A stretch of 64,000 bases of DNA from an uncultured Desulfobacteraceae bacterium. GTDB taxonomy: Bacteria; Desulfobacterota; Desulfobacteria; Desulfobacterales; JALSRD01. Both the position numbers and the translations under genes were made by a program. Shown piece after piece: positions 6,016-45,284 of this stretch; position 1 is the stretch's first letter, and each line of letters begins with the position of its first letter. The notes beneath the pieces are model-generated. The model was not told where the DNA came from and ran no database searches. It saw only the letters and a list, made by a program, of their open reading frames with translations. Location: NCBI GenBank assembly GCA_964476595.1, contig CAYZCL010000108.1, forward strand, positions 214-64,213, read 5' to 3'.

Positions 6016-7875
6016 GTGTTCGGCAACTTTTTCTACCTCATCATCGCCCTGCTGATCTACGTCACCTACCCGCCGTCGGACCGGCCCGGCCTGCCGGCCG
6101 GCGAGGCGCTGTTCTTTGCCGCCGCGCTGTTCGCCTTTTTCGCCTGGTTCACGCGCGCGCAGTTCCGCCGCATCGAGGTGCGCCTGGCCGAGGACCCCTA
6201 CGCGCGCCTGGACCACGTCTTCAACGCGCGCCTGACCCGGCAGTTCATCATGGCCATCGGCCTTTTCGCGGTGGATGTCTACGGCCTCAGCCTGCCGTCG
6301 TACATCACGGGCGTGGGGGTGCTGGAGCGCTTTCCGACCCTGGCGGCGCTGCTGTTCATCGGCCTGTTCCTGGCCTACCTGTCGGTGGTCTGGGCCCTGG
6401 CCTGGCCCTCCTACCGCGTGCTCTTCGACAGCTCGCTGACCCGCCGCGGCTACGTGCTGTCCAACATCTCCTTCAACGTGCCCATCCTGCTGCCCTGGTT
6501 CGCGCTGTCGGTGGTGGCCGACATCATCGATTCGCTGCCCTTCGAGCTGCCGCGCCGGCTGCTGGCCACCACCGGGGGCCAGGTGGTCTATTTCCTGGTG
6601 TTCCTGCTGGCCGTGGCCGTGCTGGGCCCCGTGCTGATCCAGAAGTTCTGGCGCTGCAAGCCGCTGGAGCCGGGCTACTTTCGCTCGCGCATCGAGGCCC
6701 TGTGCCGCCGGGCGGGCATGCGCTACAGCGACATCCTCTATTGGCCCATCTTCGGCGGGCGCATGATCACCGCAGGCGTTATGGGGTTGGTGGACCGCTT
6801 CCGCTACCTGCTGGTCACGCGCAGCCTGCTGCAGTTCCTGAACCCCGAGGAAATCGACGCCGTCATCGCCCACGAGATCGGCCACGTCAAGAAGCGCCAC
6901 CTGCAGTTCTACCTGCTGTTTTTCGCCGGCTACCTGCTGTTGTCCTTCGCCACCACCGACGCCATCATCTACTCGCTGATCTACGCCCGGCCGGTGCACA
7001 CTTTGATCAAGTTCGCCGGCATCGGCCGCACCACGGCCTTCTCGGTGGCCTTCAGCCTGGTGACCATCGCCCTGTTCCTGCTCTACTTCCGGTACATCTT
7101 CGGTTTTTTCATGCGCAACTTCGAGCGCCAGGCCGACACCTACGTCTTCTCGCTGTTCGACAGCGCCCTGCCGCTGATCACCACGCTCCACAAGATCGCC
7201 GTCACCAGCGGGCAGCCCGCCGACCGTCCCAACTGGCACCACTTCAGCATCGCCCAGCGCATCGCCTTCCTGCGGCGCTGCGAGAGCGACCGCGGCTGGA
7301 TCCAGCGCCACGACCGCAAGCTCAAGAAGAGCCTGGCGGTTTTCCTGGGCGCCATGAGCGTGGTGGCCGTCTTCGGCTGGCAGCTCAACTTCGGGGAGGC
7401 CGGGCGGCGCCTGAATCGCCACTTTTTCGAAAAGGCGCTGCTGCACGAGCTGCAGGCCGACCCCCACAACCCGGGTCTCTACAAGGTGCTGGGGGATCTG
7501 TACTACGGGGAGGAGAAATTCGAAAAGGCCATGAAGGCTTACGGGCGGGGGTTGACGCTGGCGCCGGACGACCCCGAACTGCTCAACAACCTGGCCTGGC
7601 TGCTGGCCACCTGCAGGGATGAAAAGCTGCGCGACCCGCGCGCGGCGCTGGAGCTGGCGCGGCGGGCGGCGGCCATCGACCCCGCCCCCCACATCCTCGA
7701 CACCCTGGCCGAGAGCTACTACCTCAACGGCATGTACGAGGAGGCGGTGGCCGCGGCCCGGGCGGCGCTGGCCGCCAGCAGCCGCAACCGCGAGTACTAC
7801 CGCAGGCAGCTGGAACGCTTCCGGCGGGCGGCCACCGGCAAGAGCGCCGCGCTCGGCGGCGCCGCGCTCACTTGA
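6016..7875 (+). CDS. Membrane M48 family zinc metalloprotease with C-terminal TPRs
   Basis: Multiple TM helices; AHEIGH; FERQAD; HFSIAQR; TPR-like NNLAWLLA / DTLAESYY. Confidence 0.85.
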   Translation: MFGNFFYLIIALLIYVTYPPSDRPGLPAGEALFFAAALFAFFAWFTRAQFRRIEVRLAEDPYARLDHVFNARLTRQFIMAIGLFAVDVYGLSLPSYITGVGVLERFPTLAALLFIGLFLAYLSVVWALAWPSYRVLFDSSLTRRGYVLSNISFNVPILLPWFALSVVADIIDSLPFELPRRLLATTGGQVVYFLVFLLAVAVLGPVLIQKFWRCKPLEPGYFRSRIEALCRRAGMRYSDILYWPIFGGRMITAGVMGLVDRFRYLLVTRSLLQFLNPEEIDAVIAHEIGHVKKRHLQFYLLFFAGYLLLSFATTDAIIYSLIYARPVHTLIKFAGIGRTTAFSVAFSLVTIALFLLYFRYIFGFFMRNFERQADTYVFSLFDSALPLITTLHKIAVTSGQPADRPNWHHFSIAQRIAFLRRCESDRGWIQRHDRKLKKSLAVFLGAMSVVAVFGWQLNFGEAGRRLNRHFFEKALLHELQADPHNPGLYKVLGDLYYGEEKFEKAMKAYGRGLTLAPDDPELLNNLAWLLATCRDEKLRDPRAALELARRAAAIDPAPHILDTLAESYYLNGMYEEAVAAARAALAASSRNREYYRRQLERFRRAATGKSAALGGAALT

Positions 7876-10261
7876 TGGTGACCTTGCGCACCTGCAGCAT
7901 GTCGGTGTGACCGGCGAAGATCTTCTCGATGCCGTCCTGCTTCAGGGTAGTCATGCCGTCCTCGATGGCCTGCTTGCGCAGTTCCTCCACGCGGGCCTTG
8001 TTCTGGATCATCTTCTTGATGACGTCGGTGCCCATCAGCAGCTCGTGCAGGCCCATGCGGCCGCGGTAGCCGGTGTTGTTGCAGTTCTCGCAGCCTTCCG
8101 GGGCGTAGAGGGTCAGGTCGTCGTTGTAGGCGATGGCCACGTTCTTCTCGAACAGCTCCGGGTCGTACTGCCGCACCAGATCGTCGTACTCCTCGCGCGA
8201 CGGGTGGTAGGGCCGCTTGCAGTCCGGGCACAGGGTCAGGACCAGGCGCTGGGCCAGGATGCACAGCACGGCGTCGGCGAAGTTGAAGGGATCCATGCCC
8301 ATGTCCAGCAGGCGGGTGATGCTCTCGGGCGCCGAGTTGGTGTGCAGGGTGGAGAGCACCAGGTGGCCGGTCAGCGAGGCCTCGATGCCGATGCGGGTGG
8401 TCTCCTGGTCGCGCATCTCGCCCACCATGATGACGTCCGGATCGGCGCGCAGGAAGGCGCGCATGGCGGCCGCAAAGTCGAACCCGATCTTGGACTTGAT
8501 CTGCACCTGGCGCAACCCCTTCTGGGTGATTTCCACGGGGTCCTCGGCCGTCCAGATCTTGGTCTCGGGTTTGTTGATGTAGCCCAGCGCCGAGTGCAGG
8601 GTGGTGGTCTTGCCGGAACCGGTGGGACCGCAGACGAAGATCAGGCCGTAAGGCTGGATGATGGCCTTGAGGAAGTTCTCGTAGTTGCGTTTGGAAAAGC
8701 CGATGCGGTCCAGCGGGATGGGGTCGCCGGACTGCAGGATACGCAGCACCACGTCCTCCAGCCCGCCCTGGGTGGGCACGGTGGCCACACGCAGTTCGAT
8801 GTCCCTGCCGCTGTACTTCTTGAACTTGATCTTGCCGTCCTGGGGCAGGCGCCGTTCGGCGATGTCGAGGTCCGACATGATCTTGATGCGCGAAATGACC
8901 GCATTCTTGTAGTTGTAGGGAATCGTCTGGTAGACGTAGCAGTTGCCGTCCACGCGAAAGCGTACCTGGGTGTTCTGGCGACCGGCGTAGGGCTCGATGT
9001 GGATGTCCGAGGCGCCGCGCGAAACGGCGTCCAGGATGATCTTGTTGACCAACTGGACCACGGCGCTGTCGCCCTCGTCGATGAAGTCGTCGCCCTCCTC
9101 GAACTCCTCGGCCTCGTCCTGCAGCTGCGAGAGGATGTCGTCGATCTCGGCGATCTCCTTCTCGTCCTGGGTGAAGAGCGAGATGGTGTCCAGGATGTCC
9201 TGTTTGAGGGCCACCTTGAAGGCCACGATCTTGCCGGGGAACAGGGCCTTGATCTCGTCGATCTTCTGCAGGTCGTAGGGGTTGTCGACGGCGATGATGA
9301 TCTTGCCGTCCTCGATGCCCAGGGGCACCCACACGTTCTTGCGCATGAAGGGCACCTTGAGCCCCACCAGCAGTTCGCCGGGGATGGGCATCTTGGCGTT
9401 GTACTCGATGTAGGGGACGCGGTAGTAGGTGCTCAAGGATTTGAGCACGTCCTTCTTGGGGATTTTGAGGTTCTTGATGAGGTGGCTCTCGATGGGCTGC
9501 CCGGCCTGGCGGGCGTAGCCGATGGCCTTGTTGAGCTCCTTTTGGGTCAGCAGGTGGTTTTCCAGCAGGTAGTCGAACTTGCTGGTTTTGTTCTTGGCCA
9601 TGCGCTTCTGGTTGAACAGCGCGATACCCAGGATCTCGGCCAGCTCGCGGATGGTGTCCTCGTCGGTCTTGTCGAAGGGCTCACCGTCCTTGCGGTTCAT
9701 CAGCTGCAGCACGCCCAGCAGGTAGCGACGGAAAACGATGGGGTAGACCAGCACCTGCCTCGTCCGGAACCCGGTGCGCACGTCCCAGTTCTTGTCGAAC
9801 TTGAGCACCGGGTCGATGGCCGCCAGTTCCTTTTCGTCGTAGACGTCCTTGATGTTGAGCAGCTGCTGCTTGAGGGCCGCGTATCCGGCGATGGACTCGG
9901 TGGAAATGGGCAGCCGGATCTCGGTGGTACCGGTGGCCGATGGAACCTGGGAGCTGAGCTCGCGCTTGATGCCGTCCACCTGGTAGACGGTCAGGCGCTC
10001 GGCGTTGAACAGGCCGGTGATCTCGTCGGACAGGTCGTTGATGATCTCCTGCACGCTGGAGGCGGCATAGACGTTGTTGGTGATATCCTTCAGCTTCTTG
10101 ATGCTGGCGACCTTGGTCTCCAGCTTGCGGTCCAGGGGGGCCTTGGTGGCCTTGAGGCCCTGAACGCCGGGTGCCGCACCGGCGCCCGTGCGGCCGCGGT
10201 GGGCCTTGAGGCCCTCTTGGCCGTTTCCCTGGCGGGCTTTACTCTCCGTGTTGCTGAGCAT
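7868..10261 (-). CDS. GspE/PulE/PilB-family secretion ATPase with N-terminal GAF domain
   Basis: GAF (GIAGYA-like ESIAGYA, LGVLQLMNRK); ASDIHIEP; Walker A GPTGSGKT; RADPDVIMVGEMRD; tetracysteine CPDC..CENC. Confidence 0.9.
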   Translation of the reverse strand: MLSNTESKARQGNGQEGLKAHRGRTGAGAAPGVQGLKATKAPLDRKLETKVASIKKLKDITNNVYAASSVQEIINDLSDEITGLFNAERLTVYQVDGIKRELSSQVPSATGTTEIRLPISTESIAGYAALKQQLLNIKDVYDEKELAAIDPVLKFDKNWDVRTGFRTRQVLVYPIVFRRYLLGVLQLMNRKDGEPFDKTDEDTIRELAEILGIALFNQKRMAKNKTSKFDYLLENHLLTQKELNKAIGYARQAGQPIESHLIKNLKIPKKDVLKSLSTYYRVPYIEYNAKMPIPGELLVGLKVPFMRKNVWVPLGIEDGKIIIAVDNPYDLQKIDEIKALFPGKIVAFKVALKQDILDTISLFTQDEKEIAEIDDILSQLQDEAEEFEEGDDFIDEGDSAVVQLVNKIILDAVSRGASDIHIEPYAGRQNTQVRFRVDGNCYVYQTIPYNYKNAVISRIKIMSDLDIAERRLPQDGKIKFKKYSGRDIELRVATVPTQGGLEDVVLRILQSGDPIPLDRIGFSKRNYENFLKAIIQPYGLIFVCGPTGSGKTTTLHSALGYINKPETKIWTAEDPVEITQKGLRQVQIKSKIGFDFAAAMRAFLRADPDVIMVGEMRDQETTRIGIEASLTGHLVLSTLHTNSAPESITRLLDMGMDPFNFADAVLCILAQRLVLTLCPDCKRPYHPSREEYDDLVRQYDPELFEKNVAIAYNDDLTLYAPEGCENCNNTGYRGRMGLHELLMGTDVIKKMIQNKARVEELRKQAIEDGMTTLKQDGIEKIFAGHTDMLQVRKVTIK

Positions 10262-24479: not shown

Positions 24480-25463
24480 CTAATCGGACTGCCCCTCCTC
24501 GGTGTAGGCCGCGAAATCGGGGATCTCACGCTTGAGGTACTCTTTCATCTTCTTGAGGATGTTCTTCTCGATCTGGCGCACCCGTTCGCGGGAGATGCCG
24601 TAGCGGTCCCCGATCTCCTGGAGCGTGGCGGGGTTCTCGGAGAAGATGCGCATGTCGAAGATCTCCAGTTCCCGGGGGGTCATCTTCTTGCGGAACTCCG
24701 CGATCTTGGAGTGCAGCAGGGCCTCCATCTCCTTTTTGGCCATCTTGTCCTCGGCCGACTCGGCCTCGGTGCTCAGGAAATCGATGCGCTCGGTGTCCGA
24801 ATCTTCCTTGAGCGGCGCGTCCAGCGAGACGTCCCAGCCGTCCAGACGCAGGTCCATGTCGATGATCTCGCGCTCGGACACGCCCAGGCGCTCGGACAGC
24901 AGCTTGGGCTTGGGGTCGAACCCCTGGTCGATGAGCAGCTGCTTCTCCTTTTTCAGCTTGAAAAACAGCTTGCGCTGCCCCTGGGTGGTGCCGATCTTGA
25001 CCAGTCGCCAGTTGTCCATGATGAACTTCAGGATGTAGGCTTTGATCCAGAAGGAGGCATAATAGGAGAACTTGACGTTCTTGTACGGGTCGAACTTCTT
25101 GACGGCCTGCATCAGGCCGATGTTGCCCTCCTGAATGAGGTCCAGCAGGTTCTGCATCCACACGCGCTGGAACTCCAGGGCGATCTTGACCACCAGGCGC
25201 AGGTTGGAGGTCACCAGCTCGTAGGCCGCCTCGGGGTCGCCGTCCTCCTGCACGCGCATAGCCAGTTCGCGTTCGCGCTCGCGGGTCAGCAGCGGGTACC
25301 TGCTGATCTCGGTCAGGTAGCGCTGAAGCGGGTCGTATTTGACCAGCGCGTGCTCCTGAGCGCCAGCGGCCGCTTTCTTTTCGGCACGGGTTGCAGCCGG
25401 CTTGGACGCACGTCCGGCCTTGGTGGTCTTTTTCGCCTTTACGTTTTTTTTCTTGCTGCTCAT
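24480..25463 (-). CDS. rpoH: RNA polymerase sigma-32 family factor
   Basis: [20 protein letters not shown], RpoH box TTQGQRKLFFKL, SRERVRQIE; Lys/Ala-rich N-terminus. Confidence 0.88.
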   Translation of the reverse strand: MSSKKKNVKAKKTTKAGRASKPAATRAEKKAAAGAQEHALVKYDPLQRYLTEISRYPLLTRERERELAMRVQEDGDPEAAYELVTSNLRLVVKIALEFQRVWMQNLLDLIQEGNIGLMQAVKKFDPYKNVKFSYYASFWIKAYILKFIMDNWRLVKIGTTQGQRKLFFKLKKEKQLLIDQGFDPKPKLLSERLGVSEREIIDMDLRLDGWDVSLDAPLKEDSDTERIDFLSTEAESAEDKMAKKEMEALLHSKIAEFRKKMTPRELEIFDMRIFSENPATLQEIGDRYGISRERVRQIEKNILKKMKEYLKREIPDFAAYTEEGQSD

Positions 25464-25682: not shown

Positions 25683-25759
<77 letters not shown>

Positions 25760-25827
25760 GACGGATCCGAAAAGCCGGACGGTGTGTCTGCAGTCCTCCT
25801 CTTTTCCGAGCAGTCAAACTTTTTTCC

Positions 25828-25856
25828 TGTATAGCCCATAAAGGATACACCGTCAA
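25828..25856 (-). promoter_or_regulatory. sigma-70-type promoter pointing antisense through tRNA-Arg toward rpoH
   Basis: TTGACG-N17-TATACA on minus strand. Confidence 0.5.
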
Positions 25857-25935
25857 TGCTTAGAAACGACCCACCGGCGGCGCCGGGCGGCCGGCGCCGC
25901 GCTTTCGGCCCCATCCGGGAGGTGCGCAACAGCCC

Positions 25936-26457
25936 ATGGAACTGACAGACGTACTGCCCATCGAAGAGTGGATCGAACTCGAAGACGACATCCGGCGGCG
26001 ATCGGGCCTGATGGCGTCTATCTACGACGTCGACGGCATCCGCATCACCGGCCGCCGGCACTGGCCCAACCGGCTGTGCCCGGCCATCAAGGGCACCGAC
26101 AAGGGGCAGGCCTTCATCTGCGCCGTGGCCCACATGAACCTGGCCATCATCGCCCGCAAGACCCGCGCGCCGGTCATCGAGGAATGCGACGCCGGCCTGC
26201 TCAAGCTGGTGGTGCCGATCTTCGTCGGCGACGAATTCCTGGGGGCCTTCGGCGGCTGCGGGATGGTGCTCGAAGACGGTGAAGTCGACAGCTTCATGAT
26301 CAACAGGACCACCGGCATCCCGGAAGAGGAGATCGAAGCGCTGGCCGCGGACATCCCCGCCATCGGCCGCGAAAAGGTCGAAGCGCTGGCCGGGTACATC
26401 CAGAAACGCCTGGCCGCCGTGACGGACGGCGCCGGCCCCGCCGCACCGGCCGGCTGA
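25936..26457 (+). CDS. Stand-alone PocR-type sensory domain protein
   Basis: LCPAIK, FICAVAH, ECDAGL, VVPIFVGDEFLG..GCG: PocR-like Cys pattern; no output domain. Confidence 0.8.
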   Translation: MELTDVLPIEEWIELEDDIRRRSGLMASIYDVDGIRITGRRHWPNRLCPAIKGTDKGQAFICAVAHMNLAIIARKTRAPVIEECDAGLLKLVVPIFVGDEFLGAFGGCGMVLEDGEVDSFMINRTTGIPEEEIEALAADIPAIGREKVEALAGYIQKRLAAVTDGAGPAAPAG

Positions 26458-26603
26458 TCCCCCCCCGGGGGCGGCGATCGGGTGACAAAAACCGTCAACG
26501 GATTGTCAATTCTCGTCGATCTGCGCCGCACCGGCCGCCGCCCGGCGCCCCCGGCGGCCGCGGCGGCCGGGCGGACGGCCCGCATCCTTCCATTTCCCAC
26601 CCA

Positions 26604-26620
26604 TTGGCTCATTTCTTGCA
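26604..26620 (+). promoter_or_regulatory. sigma-54 promoter of SPFH/zinc-ribbon pair
   Basis: TTGGCTCATTTCTTGCA = GG-N10-GC; TGACAA-N14-TTGTCA at 26483-26508 as candidate enhancer. Confidence 0.7.
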
Positions 26621-26723
26621 GGTTTCTCCGTTTCTGGAGGTTCAGCCGGGCTGAGGCCGGCGCCGGACCGGAACCGCCGGCCGCTTCAGCCGCCGACACA
26701 CCCGCACGAAAGGAGATCGTTCC

Positions 26724-27881
26724 ATGGGTACGGACAACGTGGTTTTCCTGGAGGTCCTGGAGTGGTTCGACGACACGGGCAAGGAGCTGGTGCACCGCAT
26801 CCCCGAGAAGGGCTCCGGTGAGATCAAGTGGGGCGCCCAACTCACGGTGCGTGAGAATCAGGCCGCCGTCTTTTTCTACCAGGGGCGCGCCCTGGACGCC
26901 TTCGCCGCCGGCCGCCACACCCTCAAGACCGCCAATATCCCCATTCTCACCAAGATCCTGAGCGCCCCCTGGGGCATGACCAGCCCACTGCGCGCCGAGG
27001 TCTACTTCGTCAATCTGAAGGTTTTCACCAACCTGAAGTGGGGCACCCGCGACCCGGTGGCCTTCAAGGACTCGGAACTGGGCCTCATCCGTCTGCGGGC
27101 TTTCGGTGTGCTCAACCTGCAGGTGGTCCAGCCGGTGTTGTTCATCAACAGCCTGGTGGGCACCCAGGGTAAATACACCACCGAGGAGATCGAGGAGTAC
27201 CTCAACCGCGTGGTGGTTTCGCGCTTCAACGACTACATGGGCGAAACCATCGACTCGGTGCTCAACCTGCCGGCCAAGTACGACGAGCTCTCGGAGGGGC
27301 TGGCCGCGCGGCTCAAGGACGATTTCAGCCGCTTCGGGCTGGGGCTGGACCACCTGTACATCAACGCCATCACGCCGCCGCCCGAGGTCCAGAAAGCCAT
27401 CGACGACCGCAGCCGCATGGGGGTCTTCCAGGACATGAACAAACTCATGCAGATGAAGGCCGCCATGGCCATGGAAAAGGCCGCCGAGGGCGAGAGCGGC
27501 GCCGGGGCCGGCATGGGTATGGGCACCGGGCTGGGTCTGATGATGCCGGCCATGTTCGCTCAGTTTTTCGGCGGCGCCGGCGCCGCCGCCGGGAGCGGGG
27601 GCGCACCGCCCGAGGCGCCCGCCGGGGACCTCGCCTGCCAGGAGTGTGGCCAGGCGATCACGCCGGACGCCAGATTCTGTCCCTACTGCGGACACCAGCA
27701 GCTGGTCTTCCGGCGCTGCGCCGAGTGCGGCAAGAATTTGCCCCCCACGGCTAAGTTCTGCCCGCGCTGCGGGCATCCCGCCGACCAGGACAAGGCGCCC
27801 TGGACGTGCGCCAAATGCGGCAGCGAGAACCTGCCCGAGGCCCTGTTCTGCAACCAGTGCGGAGAGAAGCACGAGAGCTGA
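26724..27881 (+). CDS. SPFH/Band-7 (YdjI-like) protein with C-terminal zinc ribbons
   Basis: IKWGAQLTVRENQAAVF, AEVYFVN, KWGTRDP, RLRAFG; Gly/Met-rich linker; six CxxC motifs. Confidence 0.88.
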   Translation: MGTDNVVFLEVLEWFDDTGKELVHRIPEKGSGEIKWGAQLTVRENQAAVFFYQGRALDAFAAGRHTLKTANIPILTKILSAPWGMTSPLRAEVYFVNLKVFTNLKWGTRDPVAFKDSELGLIRLRAFGVLNLQVVQPVLFINSLVGTQGKYTTEEIEEYLNRVVVSRFNDYMGETIDSVLNLPAKYDELSEGLAARLKDDFSRFGLGLDHLYINAITPPPEVQKAIDDRSRMGVFQDMNKLMQMKAAMAMEKAAEGESGAGAGMGMGTGLGLMMPAMFAQFFGGAGAAAGSGGAPPEAPAGDLACQECGQAITPDARFCPYCGHQQLVFRRCAECGKNLPPTAKFCPRCGHPADQDKAPWTCAKCGSENLPEALFCNQCGEKHES

Positions 27882-27935
27882 CGGATGAAAAGGCCGTGCG
27901 CCCCCACGGCCTGAACCCGCCCCGGACGCCTTATT

Positions 27936-29162
27936 GTGAAACTGCTCATCGAACACCAGTGCCCCCAGTGCGGGGCACCCGCCGTACTGGAAGAGACCGA
28001 CCGGCTGTTCAGCTGTGAATTCTGCCGGGTCAAGTCCATCCTGACGCGCGAGGACTACTTCCGCTACCTGCTGCCGGACCGCGCGCCGCGGGGCCGTGAG
28101 CTGATCTACGCCCCCTACTGGCGGCTACGCGGCACCCTGTTCTCCACCACCGCGCAGGGGGTGGTGCACCGCTTCGTGGACGTCAGCTGCCCGGCCGTGG
28201 ACCTGCGGGGCCTGCCGGTGTCGCTGGGACTGCGCAGCCAGGCCCTCAAGCTGCGTTTCGTCACGCCCGAATCGGACGGCCGTTTCCTGTCGCCGCGGCT
28301 GGGCCGCAAACGCGTCTCCGAGCAGTTCAAGGAGCAGTACGCCGCCGACCTCCCGGCGCCGCTCTACCACCAGGCGTACGTGGGCGACACGCTCAGCATG
28401 ATCTACGCCCCCTACTACGTCAACGGACGCGTCTACGACGCGGTGCTCGACGAGCCGCTGCCGGCGTCGGCCGTGGACGGCGAGGCCCTGCAGGCGGCCG
28501 AAGGCGACCGGGCCCGCTGGCCGCTGGAATTCATCCCGGCCCTGTGCCCCCGGTGCGGCTGGGACCTCGACGGCCGGCGCGACGCCCTGGCGCTGTTCTG
28601 CAGCAACTGCAGCAGCATGTGGCGCACCGAGGGCACGAAGCTCGAGCCGATGCGTTTCGCCACGCTGCAGTCCGACCTGTCCGACGCCGTCTACCTGCCC
28701 TTCTGGCGCATCCGCGCCGAAATCGAGGGCCTGCAACTGGACACCTATGCCGACCTGGCGCGGCTGGCCAACCTCCCGCAGGTGATCCGGGCGCAGTGGG
28801 CCGAAATGGGGTTCCGTTTCTGGACGCCGGCCTTCAAGCTGATGCCACGGGCCTTCTCGCGACTGTGCACCCATGCCACCCTGGCCCAGCCGCACACCGA
28901 TTTCAGGACCCGGCCGCCCGAGGGGCGCGTCCACGCCGTGACCCTACCGGTGGAAGAGGCCGTCGATAGCCTCAAGACGACCCTCTCGACCTTCATCAAG
29001 CCAGCCCGCACGCTGCTGCCCCAGCTGCCCGCCATCCGCATCCGCCCCCGGGCCTTCCTGCTGGTCTACCTGCCCTTCGCCGAAGGCCCCCACGACCTGA
29101 TCCAGCCGGATCTCAACTTGACGATCAACCGCAACCAGCTGCGCCAGTCGGCCGCCCTGTGA
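27936..29162 (+). CDS. Zinc-ribbon protein (YdjG-like), internally duplicated, no TM
   Basis: CPQCG..CEFC and CPRCG..CSNC, each followed by a Y(A/L)P(Y/F)WR motif. Confidence 0.7.
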   Translation: MKLLIEHQCPQCGAPAVLEETDRLFSCEFCRVKSILTREDYFRYLLPDRAPRGRELIYAPYWRLRGTLFSTTAQGVVHRFVDVSCPAVDLRGLPVSLGLRSQALKLRFVTPESDGRFLSPRLGRKRVSEQFKEQYAADLPAPLYHQAYVGDTLSMIYAPYYVNGRVYDAVLDEPLPASAVDGEALQAAEGDRARWPLEFIPALCPRCGWDLDGRRDALALFCSNCSSMWRTEGTKLEPMRFATLQSDLSDAVYLPFWRIRAEIEGLQLDTYADLARLANLPQVIRAQWAEMGFRFWTPAFKLMPRAFSRLCTHATLAQPHTDFRTRPPEGRVHAVTLPVEEAVDSLKTTLSTFIKPARTLLPQLPAIRIRPRAFLLVYLPFAEGPHDLIQPDLNLTINRNQLRQSAAL

Positions 29163-29174
29163 AAGCCGCAGGCG

Positions 29175-29203
29175 TTGACAGTCCGCCGCGGGGCGGCTAA
29201 AAA
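29175..29203 (+). promoter_or_regulatory. sigma-70-type promoter of pfkB kinase (possibly leaderless)
   Basis: TTGACA-N17-TAAAAA, 6 nt before ATG 29210. Confidence 0.6.
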
Positions 29204-29209
29204 GAGGGC

Positions 29210-30157
29210 ATGCCTGCAGACACCCCCCACGTGGACGTGCTGTGCGCCGGCCACGCCTGCTTCGACATGTTTTTCTCGCTGGACCACCACCCGGCACCCG
29301 ACGAGAAGGCCGTGGCATCGGCGCTGACGACCTGCGGCGGCGGCCCGGCCGCCAACGCCGCCGTAGGCGTCGCGCGCCTGGGCCTGCGGGCGGCTTTCGC
29401 CGGCTACCTGGGAGACGACCTCTTCGGCCGCCAGTGCCTGGCGGAGTTCCGGCGCGAGGGGGTCGACACCGCCCTGACGGTCACGGGCGGACACCCCACA
29501 CCGCTATCGGCCATCCTGGTCAAGCCCGACGGACGCCGCACGGTGGTCAACCACCACGGCGACACGCCGGACCTGGCGCGGCTGCCCGCCGGCCACCCCC
29601 TTCCCTCTGCCCGCGTGCTGCTCATGGACGGCCACCAGCCCGAAATATCCCTGGAACTCGTGGACCGCCTGCCCGGTGCCGTGACGGTGCTCGACGCCGG
29701 CTCACTGCACCGTGGCACGCGGCTGCTCATGGGACGCGTGGACCACGTCGTGGCCTCGCAAAAGTTCGCCCGCCAGTTCGGCGGGTGCCGGGACGACCGC
29801 GCGGCCCTGGAGCGCCTGGCGGCGGCCTGCCGCTCGGCGGTCGTCACGCTGGGGGAGAGGGGACTGATCTGGAAGGGCGAACACACGGGCAGCGGCCGCC
29901 TGGCGGCTTTCGAAGTCACGGCGGTGGACACCACCGGGGCCGGCGACGCGTTTCACGCCGCCTTCTGCGTCGGCATCGCGCGGGCACTGCCCTGGCCCGA
30001 CCTGCTGCGCTTCGCCAGTGCGGTAGGCGCCCTGGCCTGCAGCCAGACCGGCGCCCGCCCCGCCCTGCCGAACCTCGCGCAGGTGGCCGCTTTTCTCCAG
30101 AAAACCGGCCACGACGACGGGCTGGCGGGAAAACTCGCCGCCCTCACACAGGGCTGA
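29210..30157 (+). CDS. PfkB family carbohydrate kinase
   Basis: GGGPAANAAVG, VVTLGERG, VDTTGAGDAFHAA. Confidence 0.93.
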   Translation: MPADTPHVDVLCAGHACFDMFFSLDHHPAPDEKAVASALTTCGGGPAANAAVGVARLGLRAAFAGYLGDDLFGRQCLAEFRREGVDTALTVTGGHPTPLSAILVKPDGRRTVVNHHGDTPDLARLPAGHPLPSARVLLMDGHQPEISLELVDRLPGAVTVLDAGSLHRGTRLLMGRVDHVVASQKFARQFGGCRDDRAALERLAAACRSAVVTLGERGLIWKGEHTGSGRLAAFEVTAVDTTGAGDAFHAAFCVGIARALPWPDLLRFASAVGALACSQTGARPALPNLAQVAAFLQKTGHDDGLAGKLAALTQG

Positions 30158-30300: not shown

Positions 30301-31668
30301 TCAGGCGAGGTACTTGAGCTCCTTGGGCAGGGGCACGCCCTTGCCCATGCTGTCCTCGCCGTAGTTGACGCCGGCCAGGATCTCGATGTCCCGCAGGGCG
30401 CGCGTATCGCCCTCGAAGACCACCTGCTTGATGTTTTCCTTGCTGATCTTGCCGCCGGCCCACTGGATGTCCAGCACGCTGCTGGCGTCGAAGCGGTCCT
30501 CGCCCACCACCAGCTCGACCTGGCCGCCGTAGTGCTGCACGATCTTGGCCACCAACAGGCTGGGGCGGCTGTGGAAACCCAATTTCTCCGGGATCCCCAC
30601 CGTGATGCGCCCGCGCTCGATGTTCTCGTTGAGGATCTCGCGGGCCAGCTCCTTGCCGGTGTTGAGGAAGAAGCAGGCGTAGTACAGGCCGTAGTTGATG
30701 GTGTGGTCGAGCAGCTCGTGGGCGTCGATGATCTCCAGCAGTCGCTGCTGGGCCTCGCGGTAGACGTGCTTGTAGCCGGCCTCGTGTAGGTGACGCTCGT
30801 AGAAGTGAAGCAGGCGGCCGGTGGTCTGCAGCAGGTGGAAGACCACCGAGAAGAAGCTGCGCAGTTCCTTGAGCTTGCGGTCGCCGTAACGGTAACCGCC
30901 GTGGATGACGTAAGTGTCGAAGGACGACTGCAGGTTGTGCACCAGCATCTCGAAGCGCCGGATCTCGACCTCGTTGACCTTCCCGGGCACGATGGACAGG
31001 ATCTTTTCCAGGTCGAAGGGCTCGTAGAAACCCAACTGGTCGAAGTTGTCGGCGATGTTGAGAAAATCGCTGGCGATGCGCACGATGCTTTCTTTCTGTA
31101 GTTCCTTGCCCTCGTCGTCGATGTCGTAGGTGAGCATCTCGCCGGTGGTGATGGCCGGGAATTCGGCCGGATCGCAGGTGCTGGCCGGGATGGCGACGCC
31201 CAGCCGGCCGGCCTCGTGCAGGATGATGGGCGCTAGGTTGCGCAGGCAGTTCTTCAGGAACTCGTGGGCCTCCTCGCCCTGGCGGGCGAAGTCCTCGGTC
31301 TCGGGCAGGTCGTAGAAAACCAGGCGGTTGAGCACGTGCTTGAGCGAGTAAGCGCCCAGGCTGATGTGGCGCACAGCGGCCGTCAGTTCGCGGTAGAAGT
31401 ACCACGTCTGGTTGTTCTTGGCACCGTGGAAATCCAGGAAATCTTCCAGCACCTGGGAGGTGCCGATAAAGCGCGAGTAGAGCATCTTGGTGAAGGCCCG
31501 GATGGCCGTGTTGAAGTCGGCCACGTACATGCAGCACTTCAGGAAGTCGCGGGAGAAGATGTCGATCTTCTGGGCGAACGAGATTTCGCAGGCCTTCTTC
31601 CGGATGCCCGTTCCCTCCGGGCGGTCCTGCTGTCCGGGCGTGATCTGTCGGGGTTCGAACGTTCCCAC
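30301..31668 (-). CDS. Large helical N-domain fused to C-terminal HPr domain
   Basis: LGFHSRPSLLVAK (His15 motif), FDASSVLD (Ser46 motif); GTG start with GAGGAG SD. Confidence 0.75.
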   Translation of the reverse strand: MGTFEPRQITPGQQDRPEGTGIRKKACEISFAQKIDIFSRDFLKCCMYVADFNTAIRAFTKMLYSRFIGTSQVLEDFLDFHGAKNNQTWYFYRELTAAVRHISLGAYSLKHVLNRLVFYDLPETEDFARQGEEAHEFLKNCLRNLAPIILHEAGRLGVAIPASTCDPAEFPAITTGEMLTYDIDDEGKELQKESIVRIASDFLNIADNFDQLGFYEPFDLEKILSIVPGKVNEVEIRRFEMLVHNLQSSFDTYVIHGGYRYGDRKLKELRSFFSVVFHLLQTTGRLLHFYERHLHEAGYKHVYREAQQRLLEIIDAHELLDHTINYGLYYACFFLNTGKELAREILNENIERGRITVGIPEKLGFHSRPSLLVAKIVQHYGGQVELVVGEDRFDASSVLDIQWAGGKISKENIKQVVFEGDTRALRDIEILAGVNYGEDSMGKGVPLPKELKYLA

Positions 31669-31700
31669 GCTGACACTCCTCGCATGTAAAAAAACCGGCC

Positions 31701-32073
31701 GAAGCGGTCCGTAAGCCGAATTCTGTGCCCGCGGCGGGTTGCCCCGGCCGCGGGTGACGATCATTCATCTGCGGCCACCGGTTGCCCGGCGGCTCTTGCG
31801 ACCTACCCGGGAGCTCGGACGGGCCGCCCTCCAACGCTCCCCTATTTGGTCTTGCACCGGGTGGGGTTTACCGAGCTTCCCCGGTCACCCGGGGAACTGG
31901 TGCGCTCTTACCGCACCTTTTCACCCTTACCGCGCCGGAAACCCGGCACGGCGGTATCTTTTCTGTGGCACTTTCCTTCGCGTCACCGCGACTCCACGTT
32001 ATGGAGCACCCTGCCCTGTGGTGTTCGGACTTTCCTCCGGGGACACGCCCCCAGCGATCGCCTGAACCGCTTC
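31701..32073 (-). ncRNA. rnpB: RNase P RNA (type A)
   Basis: Minus strand GAGGAAAGTCC, AGTGCCACAGAAA, GGTGAAAAGGTGCGGTAAGAGC, ACAGAATTCGGCTTAC; P1 GAAGCGGTTC / GGACCGCTTC. Confidence 0.97.
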
Positions 32074-32091
32074 GGCCGGCAAAACCGGCCC

Positions 32092-40301: not shown

Positions 40302-40487
40302 TCAGGCCGCTCTTTTCAGTACGGACCGGCGCTCCCCCTTTCGGGGAGTCATCGGTTTTTTTCGGCGGTCCTCTCCGCTGCGGCGGTCACGTCCCGACCG
40401 GCGCTCCGGTAGATGATTGGCATAGCTGAATTCACGCCGATCGATCCCCGAACGCCGACCGCCGTTATCAAAATAGGCGGTGTCCAC
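40302..40487 (-). CDS. 61-aa Arg-rich microprotein with RRSGxDRR repeats
   Basis: GTG start with strong SD GGAGGAGGGG; GGRRSGIDRR..ERRSGRDRRSGEDRR..GERRS. Confidence 0.75.
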   Translation of the reverse strand: MDTAYFDNGGRRSGIDRREFSYANHLPERRSGRDRRSGEDRRKKPMTPRKGERRSVLKRAA

Positions 40488-40653
40488 AGGTACTTCCCCT
40501 CCTCCCGCATCCTCCGGCGGTATCGGCCAAAATGAAACACATCCGGTCGGTATCACAGCGTCATGGGCATCGGCTGTTCCTGTTTCGATTCTGAAAGGTG
40601 TTCGTCAGATTCCGCCCGGCATAAAAACAAACCTTCTAATGAATTTTCTTTCA

Positions 40654-40670
40654 AGCAACAATGATGCCAA
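40654..40670 (-). promoter_or_regulatory. sigma-54 promoter with IHF-like site and palindromic enhancer
   Basis: TTGGCATCATTGTTGCT (GG-N10-GC); TAACAA-N4-TTG at 40698-40710; perfect 11-bp IR at 40760-40770 / 40784-40794. Confidence 0.75.
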
Positions 40671-41027: not shown

Positions 41028-41103
41028 TGGTGGAGATGAGGGGGATCGAACCCCTGACCTCAGCGTTGCGAACGCTGCGCTCTCCCAGCTGAGCTACATC
41101 CCC
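41028..41103 (-). tRNA. tRNA-Ala(CGC)
   Basis: GGGGATG..CATCTCC-A-CCA with G3:U70; anticodon arm CAGCG-TTCGCAA-CGCTG. Confidence 0.97.
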
Positions 41104-41222: not shown

Positions 41223-42956
41223 ATGCCGTATCCCATCGTACTCAAAGACGCCTTCAAGCGCTTCACGCTGGACCAGGACAAGATCCTGCCGCCCGGGGAG
41301 ACCGTGCGGCGTTTCCGGCGCAAGCTCGAAAAACTGGACCTGGACATTCTCCGCGAGACCCGGCGCATCGACAACGGGCGGCTGGGCATTCCGGTTTACT
41401 TCAGCATCTGCGGCCGGGACGCCGCCGCCCTGACCGGCACCCGTAAGCAGATGGGCAAGGGCGCCACGCCCGAGCAGGCCGAGGCCAGCGCCGTCATGGA
41501 GCTGGCCGAGCGTTTCTCCTTCTTCAGCTTCCGCAGCAACCCGGCCAACTTCCGGCGGGCCACCTACGCGCAGGTGCGCGACCGGGCCATGCCCTTCGAG
41601 CTGATCGCGGCCTCGGTGCACGACACCTCCGAGGACCTCGAGGCGGCCCGCGGCATCTTCGAGCAGCTGCCGCTGCAGTGGACCGCGGGCTACAGCCTGA
41701 CGCAGCAGCGAGAAGTGCTGATCCCCTTTTCGTGGTTCTTCGCCATCAACGAGTTCAACGGCCCCTCGGCCGGCAACTGCGTGGAGGAGGCCCTTTCCCA
41801 GGGCATCTGCGAGATCGTCGAGCGCCACGTGTCGGCCCTGGTCAGCCGCGGGCGCATACCGGTGCCGCTCATCGATCCCGATTCGGCCACGGACCCCATG
41901 GTGCGCGACATGATCGCCAAGTACCGCCGCGCCGGCATCGTGCTCTACCTCTCGGACTTCTCGCTGGACACGGGCATCCCCACCGTGGGGGCCGTGGCCT
42001 ACGACCCGGCCACCTTCCCGCGCCACAGTGAGATCGTGTGGACCGCCGGCACCACCCCCGACCCCGAAAAAGCCCTCAGCCGCACCCTGACCGAGGTCGC
42101 CCAGCTGGCCGGCGACTTCAACACCGGCTCCAACTACGTGGCCAGCGGGCTGCCCAAACCCGCGAGCATCGCCGAGCTGGATTTCATCACGCGGGCCTCC
42201 TCCCGGGTGCCCATCGGCAGCCTGCCCGACCTTTCCAGCAACAACATCCGCCTGGAAGTCGAGGCCCTGGTGCAGGCCCTCGCCCGCAAGGGTATGGAGG
42301 TCTTTGTGATCGATACCACCCACCCGGCGCTGGGCGTACCGGCCTTCTACACCATCGTGCCGGGAGCGCACTTCCGCGAACGGGCCGTGGGAACCGGGGT
42401 GGGCATGTTCGCCGCCAGGCTGATCGCCGAAAACACCGCGCCCCGCCGGGCCATCGCCCGGCTGGAAGAAATCGACCGACTCCTGCCGGGCAAGTATTAC
42501 GTCAGCTTCTACCTGGGCCGCTGCCGCCTGGAGCTGGGCGAGCCGGAAGAGGCCCGCCGCCACCTGGAACGGGCACTGGAACTGGACCCCGGCGACGAGG
42601 ACCGGGCCAGCATCTACTCCTACCTGGGCATCTGCCACAAAGAGCGCGGCCGCTACCGGGAAGCGCTGGCCGTGCTGGCGCAGGGCGAGCGCTGCGACCC
42701 GCAGCGCACCGACATCCTCAACCTGATGGGCTTCTGCCACTTCAAGCTCGGGGAACACGAAAAGGCCATCGCCTGTTTCCGGCGGGTCATCGAGCTGGAT
42801 CCCGGCTCGGCCATCGACTACGCCAACATCGCCTCCAACTACCGCGACATGGGCCGGCGCAAGGAGGCCGTGCGCTACTACCGCATGGCGCTGGAACTGG
42901 ACCCGGGCATCGACTTCGCACGCGAAAACCTGGAAAAGCTGACTTCCGGGGAGTGA
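41223..42956 (+). CDS. YcaO-family ATP-dependent backbone-activating enzyme fused to C-terminal TPRs
   Basis: MGKGATPEQAEASAVMELAERF, FNGPSAGNCVEEALSQGICEIVERH, RTLTEVAQ; about 5 TPRs at C-terminus. Confidence 0.88.
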   Translation: MPYPIVLKDAFKRFTLDQDKILPPGETVRRFRRKLEKLDLDILRETRRIDNGRLGIPVYFSICGRDAAALTGTRKQMGKGATPEQAEASAVMELAERFSFFSFRSNPANFRRATYAQVRDRAMPFELIAASVHDTSEDLEAARGIFEQLPLQWTAGYSLTQQREVLIPFSWFFAINEFNGPSAGNCVEEALSQGICEIVERHVSALVSRGRIPVPLIDPDSATDPMVRDMIAKYRRAGIVLYLSDFSLDTGIPTVGAVAYDPATFPRHSEIVWTAGTTPDPEKALSRTLTEVAQLAGDFNTGSNYVASGLPKPASIAELDFITRASSRVPIGSLPDLSSNNIRLEVEALVQALARKGMEVFVIDTTHPALGVPAFYTIVPGAHFRERAVGTGVGMFAARLIAENTAPRRAIARLEEIDRLLPGKYYVSFYLGRCRLELGEPEEARRHLERALELDPGDEDRASIYSYLGICHKERGRYREALAVLAQGERCDPQRTDILNLMGFCHFKLGEHEKAIACFRRVIELDPGSAIDYANIASNYRDMGRRKEAVRYYRMALELDPGIDFARENLEKLTSGE

Positions 42957-43037: not shown

Positions 43038-45284
43038 CTATCGCGAAGCGCTCTTCGACACGCGGCCCCTGAGCGCCGCGATGCGGGCCTCCACCGCATC
43101 GCAACCGGCCGCCATGCCGACCAGCGCCTCGGCAGCGCGGCGCCGGCTTTCGTGCGTGCCGGCGGCCAGGTCGGAAAGACGCGCCAGGTCCGCGTCGTAG
43201 GACTGGAAACGCCCGGCCAGCTCCTGGCGGATGCTCCCGGCGAAAGCGTCCAGCAGTTTGAGCAGGTACTGGAACTTGATGTTCTCGCGGTAGTCCAGGA
43301 ACGAGGCGCGCATGCTCTTCTCCATCTCGCGCTTGATGCGCCGCACGCTGTGTTCGAGGGCCCGCACCACCTCGCGGTTCCCGTCGGCGTCCCTGGAGCG
43401 CAGCAACCGGCGGGCCAGGCGCAGCAGCGAAAACACTCCGTAGTGGGCCACCACCTCGGCCCGGATGCGCGCCGAGTAGCGCATGGTCATGCGCGCGGCC
43501 GGCAGCCGGATGCCGGCCCGGCGGCGCACGATTTCCAGCTCGGGCAGCCGGAAGGGCTGCACGGCGGGCCGTTCGTCCGCCGGATCCGCGCCCCCCAGGT
43601 CGCGCTCGTAGGCCTGCAGGCTGTCACGCCCCATCTCGTCGAAGGGCGCCACCACCGCTTCCAGTTCATGCCGGATACGCTCCTCGCAGCGGCGGACGAA
43701 TTTCACCACCCGCGGGTGGATGGTTTCGGTGAGGTAGACATCCAGCGCCTGCCGGAAATCCTGGTAGACCAGGTAAAGGGTCTGGTTGAAGCCGGCCGAC
43801 GCGATCTGCTCCCGGTAGGCCCCGTAGGAGACCTCGTAGCCGCGGATGAAATCCAGCACGTCCCCCAGCAGTCCCCCGGCGCGGTCGTCGAAGAAGCGGT
43901 CGGTCTCGGTTTTCAGTTCCCGGCGCACCGGCTGCAGGGCGCCGTCCAGGGTGGTCTTCACCATGACGTGCAGATGGGTGATCTTCTTCTGGTGGCGGGC
44001 GATGCCGGAGACCAGTTCACGCACGCCGTCGGCGTCGCGCGTCAGCATCTGCCGGTGGATGTCCACCCACCGGCGCAGCGCGGCGGCCACCACGGCGATG
44101 CGCTCCAGGTGGTTGCCCAGCAGCAGGCGGCTGCGCTGGTGGGCCAGGTGGTGGCCGAAGACCGCCTCGAAACGCTCCCGCTGAGCGTCGCAGAAGGCCA
44201 CCAGTTCGGCGTCCGCCTCCCACTGGGCCAGGCGCAGGCGGTCTCTTTCGCCGAGTTGCGCGTCCGGGCGGCGCAACAGGTTGTAGAGCGCCGAGAAGGC
44301 GTACACCTCCGGCTCGGGCTTGATCACCGCCAGGTCCCGCCGGGTGCGCTCGACCAGCGCCTCCAGTTCGCGACGCGACTCGTGCTCGCCGAAATCGGTG
44401 TTGACCACGAAGATCATGTTGCCGATGATGCCCATCTCGCGGATCATCGACAGGAATCGGATGTCCGCCTGGCGCAAACCGGTGCGGCTGCTGATGAGGT
44501 AGACGATGAAGTGCGTCAGCAGCAGGTAGTCCTGGATCATGGACAGGTGCAGGGGATTGGGGGAATCGCTGCCCTGGCAGTCGGCCAGCTCCAAGTCGTC
44601 TTCCAGCAGCGGTGCCGGGATCTCCAGCAGGGCGTCCTGCAGGTAGACGGCCAGGGCGTCGGCGCTGACGAACTCCTGGTGCTGTGCGAAAACCTCCGCC
44701 TCCAGCACCCTGACGCCGGTCTCGGCGCCGAACAGCTCCGATACCCGCTCGTAGCCCTCCAGGTAGGCCGCCAGCAGGATGGCGTTCTCGTTTCTCCGCC
44801 CGTCGCGGATGAGCAGTTCCGGTCCCGCCTCCGCCAGTGCCCGTGCGAGGGCCTTGCGGTCCGCGGCGCGCCGGATGTCGAAAGATTCCCGCTCGCGGTC
44901 CCACAACGGGGCCGGGAACAGCACCAGGGCCTGTTCGATGTCGGCGTTGATCTCGTCCCAGGGCTTGAACGTCAGCGTGGCCCGGGGGCCGCGGCCGCCG
45001 CGGATACGCGTGACGATGGAGGTCATCACGCCCGCACCGCGGCGCAGGTGGTCGGCGCCCAGCAGCGCGTTGATGAAGGTGCTCTTGCCGGACTTGATGG
45101 CGCCCACCACGGCCACGCGCACCACGTCCTCGGACATCTGCTCCTCGACGGCGTCGCAGCTTCGGCGCCAGCGGGCAAAGACCGCCTCGGCCAGGTCGGG
45201 GACCGCGGCGGCGGTGTCGAACAGGCGGTCCAGTTCCCCTTTGACCTGCAGTATCTCGGCTTTGATGCTTTTGTATGCGTCCAT
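43038..45284 (-). CDS. Bacterial dynamin-like GTPase
   Basis: G1 VGAIKSGKSTFINALLG, G2 GVMTSIVT, G3 LADCQG, G4 region VVNTD; long helical stalk. Confidence 0.8.
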   Translation of the reverse strand: MDAYKSIKAEILQVKGELDRLFDTAAAVPDLAEAVFARWRRSCDAVEEQMSEDVVRVAVVGAIKSGKSTFINALLGADHLRRGAGVMTSIVTRIRGGRGPRATLTFKPWDEINADIEQALVLFPAPLWDRERESFDIRRAADRKALARALAEAGPELLIRDGRRNENAILLAAYLEGYERVSELFGAETGVRVLEAEVFAQHQEFVSADALAVYLQDALLEIPAPLLEDDLELADCQGSDSPNPLHLSMIQDYLLLTHFIVYLISSRTGLRQADIRFLSMIREMGIIGNMIFVVNTDFGEHESRRELEALVERTRRDLAVIKPEPEVYAFSALYNLLRRPDAQLGERDRLRLAQWEADAELVAFCDAQRERFEAVFGHHLAHQRSRLLLGNHLERIAVVAAALRRWVDIHRQMLTRDADGVRELVSGIARHQKKITHLHVMVKTTLDGALQPVRRELKTETDRFFDDRAGGLLGDVLDFIRGYEVSYGAYREQIASAGFNQTLYLVYQDFRQALDVYLTETIHPRVVKFVRRCEERIRHELEAVVAPFDEMGRDSLQAYERDLGGADPADERPAVQPFRLPELEIVRRRAGIRLPAARMTMRYSARIRAEVVAHYGVFSLLRLARRLLRSRDADGNREVVRALEHSVRRIKREMEKSMRASFLDYRENIKFQYLLKLLDAFAGSIRQELAGRFQSYDADLARLSDLAAGTHESRRRAAEALVGMAAGCDAVEARIAALRGRVSKSASR

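Follow-up and report, generated by a model that had tools for sequence, protein, structure and literature searches.

A two-gene operon of Desulfobacterales encoding a soluble SPFH protein and a duplicated zinc-ribbon protein: a probable stress module that differs in its design from the Psp-linked one

SPFH proteins are understood mainly as membrane-anchored cages, and studies of the YdjI/SamI branch have, to our knowledge, been confined to Bacillus, in which it relies on two membrane proteins and acts together with PspA. A stretch of 64 kb from an uncultured Desulfobacteraceae bacterium (contig CAYZCL010000108.1 of assembly GCA_964476595.1; the whole stretch is called the window hereafter) carries a gene for a YdjI-like SPFH protein (Gene 1), followed on the same strand by a gene for a duplicated zinc-ribbon protein (Gene 2, whose product is called P2). 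No pspA, pspF or TPM gene was found among the 38 open reading frames (ORFs) of the window that were scanned for families. The locus thereby raises the question of how a protein of the YdjI type is partnered and regulated away from the genes that accompany it in Bacillus. A first-pass annotation, made from the letters of the DNA, had proposed Firmicute-type Psp partners under proteobacterial-type sigma-54 control, possibly serving envelope stress or phage response. The analysis presented here indicates that the two genes probably form a stress module that is built differently from the Psp-linked one.

The reference for comparison was the pspA-ydjGHI operon of Bacillus subtilis, which is under the control of sigma-W (PMC8581546). 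YdjI/SamI is a soluble SPFH protein that is recruited by YdjG and YdjH and itself recruits PspA (PMC8581546; bioRxiv 10.64898/2026.02.06.704340). YdjG, a membrane protein, is required for the recruitment of YdjI and PspA (PMC8581546); it has been described as made up of two zinc ribbons, an NTF2-like domain related to YpeB and a transmembrane (TM) segment (PMC11237479). Control of psp genes by sigma-54 and PspF has been described in D. vulgaris as well (PMC4641369). Related loci fetched for comparison carry L-numbers, with 89 loci entering the motif counts and 68 the promoter-type counts; the B. subtilis reference (L085) was recovered from a metagenome via a primer sequence printed in PMC8581546.

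Gene 1 (26724..27881, + strand) encoded a protein of 385 aa matching Pfam PF13421 and zinc-ribbon families. The Band_7_1 domain (PF13421) was recognized over residues 24-234 with the whole profile covered (E 3e-65; 220.2 bits against a gathering cutoff of 24), and the SPFH family PF01145 also matched (E 9.5e-11). The Band_7_1 core was followed by a Gly/Met-rich linker (residues ~250-300) and three zinc ribbons (302-382), and the six CxxC motifs reported in the first-pass annotation were recovered as exactly six, between residues 305 and 379. Its assignment to the YdjI type was likewise borne out, with 28% identity to B. subtilis YdjI over 322 aa (BLASTP, E 2e-28) and an identical domain order. 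Based on Kyte-Doolittle hydropathy of 19-residue segments, which served as the test for TM segments throughout, no TM-like segment was present, the maximum of 1.55 lying within the SPFH domain. A PDB sequence search with the protein returned no significant match. Because the similarity to YdjI is full-length and the order of core, linker and ribbons is shared, Gene 1 is, as judged from its sequence, a YdjI/SamI-type soluble SPFH protein. Identity ranged from 68 to 94% across the loci with a full-length match.

Gene 2 (27936..29162, + strand) encoded P2, a protein of 408 aa composed of two tandem modules of ~200 aa. Module 1 (residues 1-195; 27936..28520, + strand) comprised a zinc ribbon (CPQC...CEFC), a long hairpin with the motif YAPYWR, a helix and a hairpin with the motif IYAPYY. 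Module 2 (residues 196-408 and the stop codon; 28521..29162, + strand) comprised a zinc ribbon (CPRCGWDL...CSNC), a YLPFWR hairpin, a helical insert, an LPVEEAVDSLK helix and a VYLPF hairpin. Besides YAPYW at residue 58 and YLPFW at residue 253, further Y-x-P-[YF] motifs were located at residues 157 and 378. The two halves were homologous to each other (hhalign probability 96%, E 2.3e-9, 164 columns), and P2 reads as a tandem duplication of a module made of a zinc ribbon and two Y-x-P-[FY] hairpins. Hydropathy reached no more than 1.04 and no TM-like segment was detected, so that the earlier description of a 408-aa, two-module zinc-ribbon protein lacking a TM helix held in full.

P2 belongs to an undescribed protein family. 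It had no Pfam or NCBIfam family, and when its halves and YdjG were searched against Pfam at E up to 10, they had only generic zinc ribbons in common. The PDB sequence search with the P2 profile gave nothing significant, and the AlphaFold2 (AF2) model, which was confident (pLDDT 87, pTM 0.85, built on 25 homologues), found no fold match in PDB or BFVD. Relatives were numerous: the 8,000 candidates scored yielded at least 1,924 clusters at 90% identity, and 1,102 clusters were counted at 50% identity. Most listed homologues were ~410 aa long, with shorter ones missing some of the profile. When GTDB species genomes were scanned, P2 relatives were recovered in 370 of them, and nearly all of the best 80 P2 loci were labelled Desulfobacterales or related. 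In the alignment of homologues, the invariant residues of P2 were mostly aromatic, Pro, Gly and Arg. As no catalytic signature was apparent, a structural or adaptor role is likelier than that of an enzyme.

The proposal that Gene 2 is the counterpart of YdjG was upheld as far as zinc-ribbon similarity and adjacency to the SPFH gene are concerned, but not as to homology beyond the ribbon. With full profiles, hhalign aligned P2 significantly with the YdjG family only across the zinc ribbon (probability 72-77%), and removal of the ribbon lowered the probability to less than 10% (E 0.004-0.01). Module 2 with its ribbon included aligned with the YdjG family at a probability of 93% (E 2.5e-7), in an alignment that also paired 'VTLPVEEAVDSLK...LLVYLPF' with 'VIPFTISKQEAEQAFRKW...GMYIPFW' of YdjG, giving a motif-level match of VxPxT[IL]xxxEA...YxPF[W]. 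PF08271 matched YdjG (E 1.4e-11) and neither half of P2, and the C-terminal TM segment expected of the YdjG family had no counterpart in P2, hydropathy rising to 1.56 at residues 315-333 of YdjG compared to the P2 maximum given above. The AF2 model of YdjG was too poor (pLDDT 53) for the folds to be compared; strand, helix and long YxPFW hairpin nevertheless followed one another in a similar order in the YdjG and P2 models. No NTF2-like match was obtained in PDB with the P2 model. On these sequence comparisons, P2 is an analogue of YdjG by position and may be distantly homologous to it. Its membership of the YdjG family is not demonstrated, the profile match being significant only across the ribbon, and both the TM segment and the PF08271 signature are missing.

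These results bear on the first rival explanation, namely that P2 is a true but diverged YdjG/SamG homologue that lost its TM segment and duplicated its core, the operon being derived from pspA-ydjGHI by loss of pspA and ydjH. Such descent would fit with the position of both proteins as zinc-ribbon partners beside a Band_7_1 SPFH gene, with the pairing of module 2 past the ribbon, with the two Y/L-x-P-[FV]-W hairpins present in each protein, and with the similar order of structural elements in the two models. It is countered by the collapse of the signal once the ribbon is left out, by full profiles that align over the ribbon only, by the missing PF08271 match and TM segment of P2, by the lack of an NTF2-like match for it in PDB, and by the low confidence of the YdjG model itself. 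Common descent of this kind is a possibility of some substance, but on balance it is doubtful.

The linkage of the two genes was very consistent among related loci. Where the upstream sequence was long enough, the SPFH gene lay directly 5' of the P2 gene and in the same orientation, with two to four exceptions; L049 and L039 were clear ones, L059 has only ~1.2 kb of upstream sequence and L009 a masked gap. The two genes were thus co-conserved. Complete genomes that carry the pair include CP070746.1 and CP070694.1. The intergenic gap was at most 60 nt, or the genes overlapped, in about half of the loci, and the SPFH protein was the better conserved of the two products (~70-76% identity, against ~50% for P2). 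The recurrence of the pair in otherwise unrelated neighbourhoods indicates an autonomous unit. No terminator was found in 25800-29400 of the window, and a hairpin between the two genes was no better than that of shuffled sequence (z -1.4). At the related loci that were inspected, the predicted genes likewise included no pspA, pspF, TPM or membrane-anchor gene; together with the scan of the window ORFs, this agrees with the earlier statement that PspA, TPM and a membrane anchor are lacking at the locus. One locus had an unusual arrangement: in L029 (196-400), all that remained of the SPFH gene between the operon promoter and an intact P2 gene was the last zinc ribbon (FCPNCGNENLADADFCNECGEKLG*). 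The SPFH body was apparently lost by a natural deletion, unless the contig is misassembled.

Two DNA elements upstream of Gene 1 had been reported from the letters, TGACAA-N14-TTGTCA with a nested TGAC-N7-GTCA, and TTGGC-N7-TTGCA, and both were found at the expected places. The first is a candidate enhancer, or upstream activating sequence (26483..26510, + strand; GTGACAAAAACCGTCAACGGATTGTCAAT), centred ~110 bp upstream of the -24 GG. It combines the inverted repeat (26483-26508, nested repeat included) with direct GTCAA half-sites 11 bp apart, and the inverted-repeat pattern matched once in the window compared to 0.03 matches expected from shuffles. The second is a sigma-54-type -24/-12 promoter (26604..26620, + strand; TTGGCTCATTTCTTGCA) with the GG at 26606-26607, the GC at 26618-26619 and the correct GG-N10-GC spacing. 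It is intergenic, lies on the operon strand and precedes the SPFH ATG by 104 nt. The ribosome-binding site AAGGAG (26710..26715, + strand) stands 8 nt before the SPFH start codon, the block AAAGGAGA being invariant in four aligned loci.

These four loci, namely the window and three related loci (L004, L086 and L088) whose P2 proteins are 77-87% identical, provided a footprint alignment of the intergenic region. Within a diverged, indel-rich spacer, two near-invariant islands stood out, GGGTGACAAAAACyGTCAACnnATTGTCAATTCyCGTC and TTGGCTCAyTTyTTGCA. The enhancer repeat was near-invariant in L004, in L088 and in the part of it that is present in L086. The promoter appeared as TTGGCTCAyTTyTTGCA in L086 and L088, and L004 differed at the 5' end (CTGGCG), the -24 GG and -12 GC remaining invariant. 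Conserved islands in an otherwise diverged spacer support a real sigma-54 promoter with an enhancer, and the weight of the -24/-12 element comes from its position and its conservation in orthologous loci, not from the core pattern alone. From the sequence, we infer that the operon promoter of the window is RpoN-dependent and that an enhancer-binding protein (EBP) binds the repeat. No sigma-70-like promoter was found in 25800-29400. The TTGACA-like repeat was also considered as a sigma-70 promoter and rejected, as no acceptable -10 element accompanied it on either strand.

Across the family, promoter types differed by lineage. A sigma-54-type element was found in only 12 of the 68 loci. Six loci (L032, L033, L040, L042, L045, L052) carried a near-consensus TGGCAyyGTTGTTGCA at about -57 to -65, and in L032, L033 and L045, CTTTGTCAAC was located ~200 bp further upstream. 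A second clade thereby has a sigma-54 promoter of its own, TGGCATCGTTGTTGCA, at about -57 to -61, independent of that of the window's clade and preceded further upstream by TTGTCAAC in three loci. TTGTCAA occurred upstream in 7 of the 12 sigma-54-type loci compared to 4 of the 56 others, counts that are not phylogenetically independent. At least 19 other loci (L001, L012, L015, L018, L019, L021, L024-L026, L041, L051, L056, L061, L064, L066, L069, L075, L079, L080) had a sigma-32-like promoter, CTTAAGTTT-N13/14-GrCCGATAT, mostly ~140 nt upstream of the SPFH start codon and, in the 89 loci, nowhere else. A stricter motif, CTTAAG-N13-17-CCGATA, occurred 15 times in the 89 loci, every time on the operon strand directly 5' of the SPFH gene (a remnant in L029). 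The delta-proteobacterial sigma-32 consensus is CTTGAAA-N11/16-CCCCAT, with an aCCgAT variant (PMC545781), and the family motif agrees with it at 4 of 7 positions of the -35 element and 4 of 6 of the -10 element, which is similarity to a consensus only. In addition, of the ~49 loci with sufficient upstream sequence, 16 had rpoH divergent from the SPFH gene and 0.9-2.5 kb upstream of it, and in one further locus the distance was 4.2 kb.

L020, L031 and L047 had yet another kind of upstream element, with (T/A)AATCTG(T/C)G repeated three times in tandem directly 5' of the SPFH ribosome-binding site. Two of these loci, L020 and L031, have a sigma-54 EBP gene that is convergent and downstream of P2.

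As read from these promoter motifs, the module is tied to stress sigma factors, and which one it is tied to varies by lineage. Sigma-54 control being lineage-specific, the module is not defined by proteobacterial psp-type control. What was kept of the first-pass annotation in this respect is the sigma-54 promoter footprinted in the window's clade; its generality was not, given the few loci of that type and the larger number with a sigma-32-like promoter. No PspF-like or other EBP gene was found near the operon of the window.

Compared to pspA-ydjGHI (samGHI) of B. subtilis, the operon has in common the SPFH protein as a full-length YdjI homologue, a zinc-ribbon partner encoded next to it and a stress-linked alternative sigma factor. 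It differs in that it is devoid of pspA and of a TPM/ydjH gene, that P2 is TM-less and tandemly duplicated with no detectable homology to YdjG beyond the ribbon, that the gene order is reversed with the SPFH gene first, and that Gene 1 ends in three zinc ribbons whereas YdjI has one. The promoter is sigma-54 or sigma-32-like instead of sigma-W dependent, and the hosts are Desulfobacterota instead of Firmicutes. With the enterobacterial and Desulfovibrio psp systems (sigma-54/PspF), the operon shares its association with stress, a -24/-12 promoter and an upstream enhancer-like repeat; unlike them, it has no pspB or pspC gene any more than pspA, pspF or another EBP gene within the 64 kb, and sigma-54 control extends to no more than the minority of family loci given above.

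Other SPFH systems were more distant. HflK/C, the flotillins FloA/FloT and the stomatin-NfeD pairs belong to the same fold family (PF01145) and also have a dedicated partner in the operon. The proteins described here differ from them by the lack of a TM or hairpin anchor, of a long coiled coil or flotillin domain, and of an NfeD or protease partner, and by a C-terminus made of zinc ribbons. Archaeal ESCRT-linked SPFH proteins carry a coiled coil and a zinc ribbon (PMC10936438); they resemble Gene 1 in that SPFH and zinc ribbon are combined, in a context of stress or of membrane remodelling, but are encoded with ESCRT and adaptin-like gene partners, whereas no ESCRT-III/PspA gene is present here. 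In the literature, the Bacillus system and broad Psp surveys were found, and no description of the SPFH-P2 pair.

The explanation that accounts best for these results, and that is held with slightly more belief than doubt, is an autonomous stress-regulated operon in which a soluble SPFH scaffold and a dedicated P2 partner are placed under sigma-54 or sigma-32-like control. The Gene 1 product would be the scaffold, with its Band_7_1 core, Gly/Met-rich linker and three zinc ribbons, and P2 would be its pseudo-dimeric partner, each module of which would consist of a zinc ribbon and an alpha/beta domain. In the window's clade, transcription would start from the sigma-54 promoter at 26604-26620, activated by an EBP encoded elsewhere and acting on TGACAA...TTGTCAA ~110 bp upstream, and in other clades the SPFH-P2 pair would be read from a sigma-32-like promoter, often beside rpoH. 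By analogy with SamGHI of B. subtilis, P2 would most likely bind the SPFH oligomer and, under envelope or proteotoxic stress, serve as its adaptor or regulator, a role in which it would stand in for YdjG and YdjH, both membrane proteins. The interaction of the two proteins, the stress signal and any membrane association are suggested by their co-conservation and by the work on Bacillus SamGHI.

Several observations weigh against this explanation. Since neither protein has a membrane anchor, a membrane-linked role is drawn from analogy alone, and P2 has no detectable catalytic or binding motif that would point to a mechanism. In L002 and L005, an opposite-strand DUF4124 gene lies between the SPFH and P2 genes and splits the pair, which means that co-transcription is not universal. 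The sigma-54 core TTGGC-N7-TTGCA alone is not rare, with three matches in the window against 1.2 expected. No EBP gene was found in the window or at any sigma-54-type locus when six-frame translations were searched for GAFTGA and Walker-A signatures, from which it follows that the activator would be encoded elsewhere. Finally, the sequencing runs that hold the window sequence are DNA from hydrothermal-vent metagenomes only, with no RNA run among them.

A more far-reaching form of the autonomous-operon explanation is that P2 founds a new fold and family, which lets a YdjI-type SPFH protein work as a soluble or peripheral SPFH-P2 assembly, with neither a membrane anchor nor PspA in cis, the pseudo-dimeric P2 replacing the YdjG/YdjH platform and the wiring to sigma-54 or sigma-32 depending on lineage. 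This proposal is tentative and, as it stands, fairly unlikely.

The sigma-32-like promoters also bring in a different kind of function, cytoplasmic protein quality control within the heat-shock regulon, in which the SPFH oligomer would modulate a protease or chaperone and P2 would act as a zinc-dependent substrate adaptor. A partnership between SPFH proteins and a protease is established for HflK/C, which acts on FtsH, and a similar role for the pair would suit the sigma-32-like promoters of at least 19 loci, the adjacent rpoH in 17 and the solubility of both proteins. No protease or chaperone gene was, however, linked to the pair at any locus examined; the sigma-32 assignment itself amounts to the partial consensus match given above, and the closest characterised homologue, YdjI, works at the membrane with PspA (PMC8581546). 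Quality control is accordingly regarded as an unlikely function of the pair.

Another rival concerns the DNA elements, which may be neither promoter nor enhancer, the repeat being an operator for a repressor or other factor and transcription coming from an unrecognised promoter or from read-through of pocR. The frequency of the core pattern and the lack of an EBP gene nearby would agree with such a reading, as would the location of pocR, which precedes the SPFH gene in the same orientation without a terminator having been detected between them. Nevertheless, the two elements are the sole strongly conserved islands of the spacer in the four aligned loci, with GG and GC invariant, and in a second clade the gene is preceded by a sigma-54 element that is close to consensus and of independent origin. 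Moreover, no sigma-70-like promoter is present, and an enhancer-promoter distance of 110 bp is typical. A non-promoter role of the elements is therefore considered improbable.

The weakest rival, an anti-phage defence or abortive-infection system, in line with the phage-response role proposed in the first-pass annotation, can draw on the occurrence of SPFH and zinc-ribbon proteins in some defence contexts and on a weak, sub-threshold PADLOC match to HEC-08 within the zinc ribbon of P2 (E 0.0034, 31 residues), but is very improbable in view of the lack of a significant PADLOC match for either protein (none at all for the SPFH protein), of any relative in 2.9 million viral contigs and of any integrase or mobile element flanking the pair in the window, of housekeeping neighbours (rpoH, tRNA, RNase P RNA, rpoD, dnaG, mutS), and of a vertical-looking pattern with rpoH synteny kept and SPFH identity of ~70% or more across the order.

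The closest relatives of the window were MAGs (metagenome-assembled genomes) of uncultured Desulfobacteraceae. The G+C content was 66.6%, and nearly the entire window (0.98 of sampled words) was recovered in one run from a hydrothermal-vent metagenome and in one further run. Housekeeping genes in the window included mutS, rpoD, dnaG, purL, rseP, rpsB, tsf and prfA. Divergent from the operon was rpoH, of the sigma-32 family (24480..25463, - strand; NCBIfam NF005143, 272.7 bits against a cutoff of 241), with a tRNA-Arg(TCT) gene (25683-25759, + strand) between the two. Directly 5' of the enhancer, a gene encoded a stand-alone PocR sensory-domain protein of 173 aa (25936..26457, + strand; Pfam PF10114, E 8e-19), which was kept at the operon-upstream position only in the window's clade (also in L004 and L088).

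Elsewhere in the window, a second near-consensus sigma-54-type element, TGGCATCATTGTTGCT (40654-40669, - strand), was located in a gene-poor stretch, 5' of a small Arg-rich ORF (40302-40556, - strand) and 3' of a tRNA-Ala gene (41028-41103). A dynamin-family protein of 748 aa (43038-45284, - strand), of the bacterial dynamin-like kind and another candidate for membrane remodelling, was encoded next to a YcaO-TPR fusion protein (41223-42956, + strand). The RNase P RNA gene (class A, 302 bits; 31696-32074, - strand) overlaps the 5' end of an ORF of 487 aa (30301-31764, - strand), whose start must consequently be 3' of the RNA gene; this ORF is kept in relatives as an unannotated gene of ~456 aa and had only a weak C-terminal HPr-like match. 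A GAF-MshEN-T2SSE secretion ATPase of 797 aa (7868-10261, - strand) carried an N-terminal GAF sensor domain.

What is new at this locus is an undescribed partner family and a different wiring, while the SPFH half is unsurprising and the function suggested for the pair comes from analogy. The YdjI/SamI branch of SPFH proteins is kept across an order of sulfate reducers with a different, soluble and duplicated partner and with no psp genes nearby, and the promoter ahead of this one gene pair appears to have been swapped between two stress sigma factors. If P2 does represent a new fold that replaces the membrane platform, the pair would be a distinct, order-wide stress system and not a degenerate psp operon. 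The P2 family, which comprises over 1,000 clusters at 50% identity and lacks both a Pfam model and a structural neighbour, is a clear target for structure determination, and it may be useful for asking what soluble SPFH scaffolds do.

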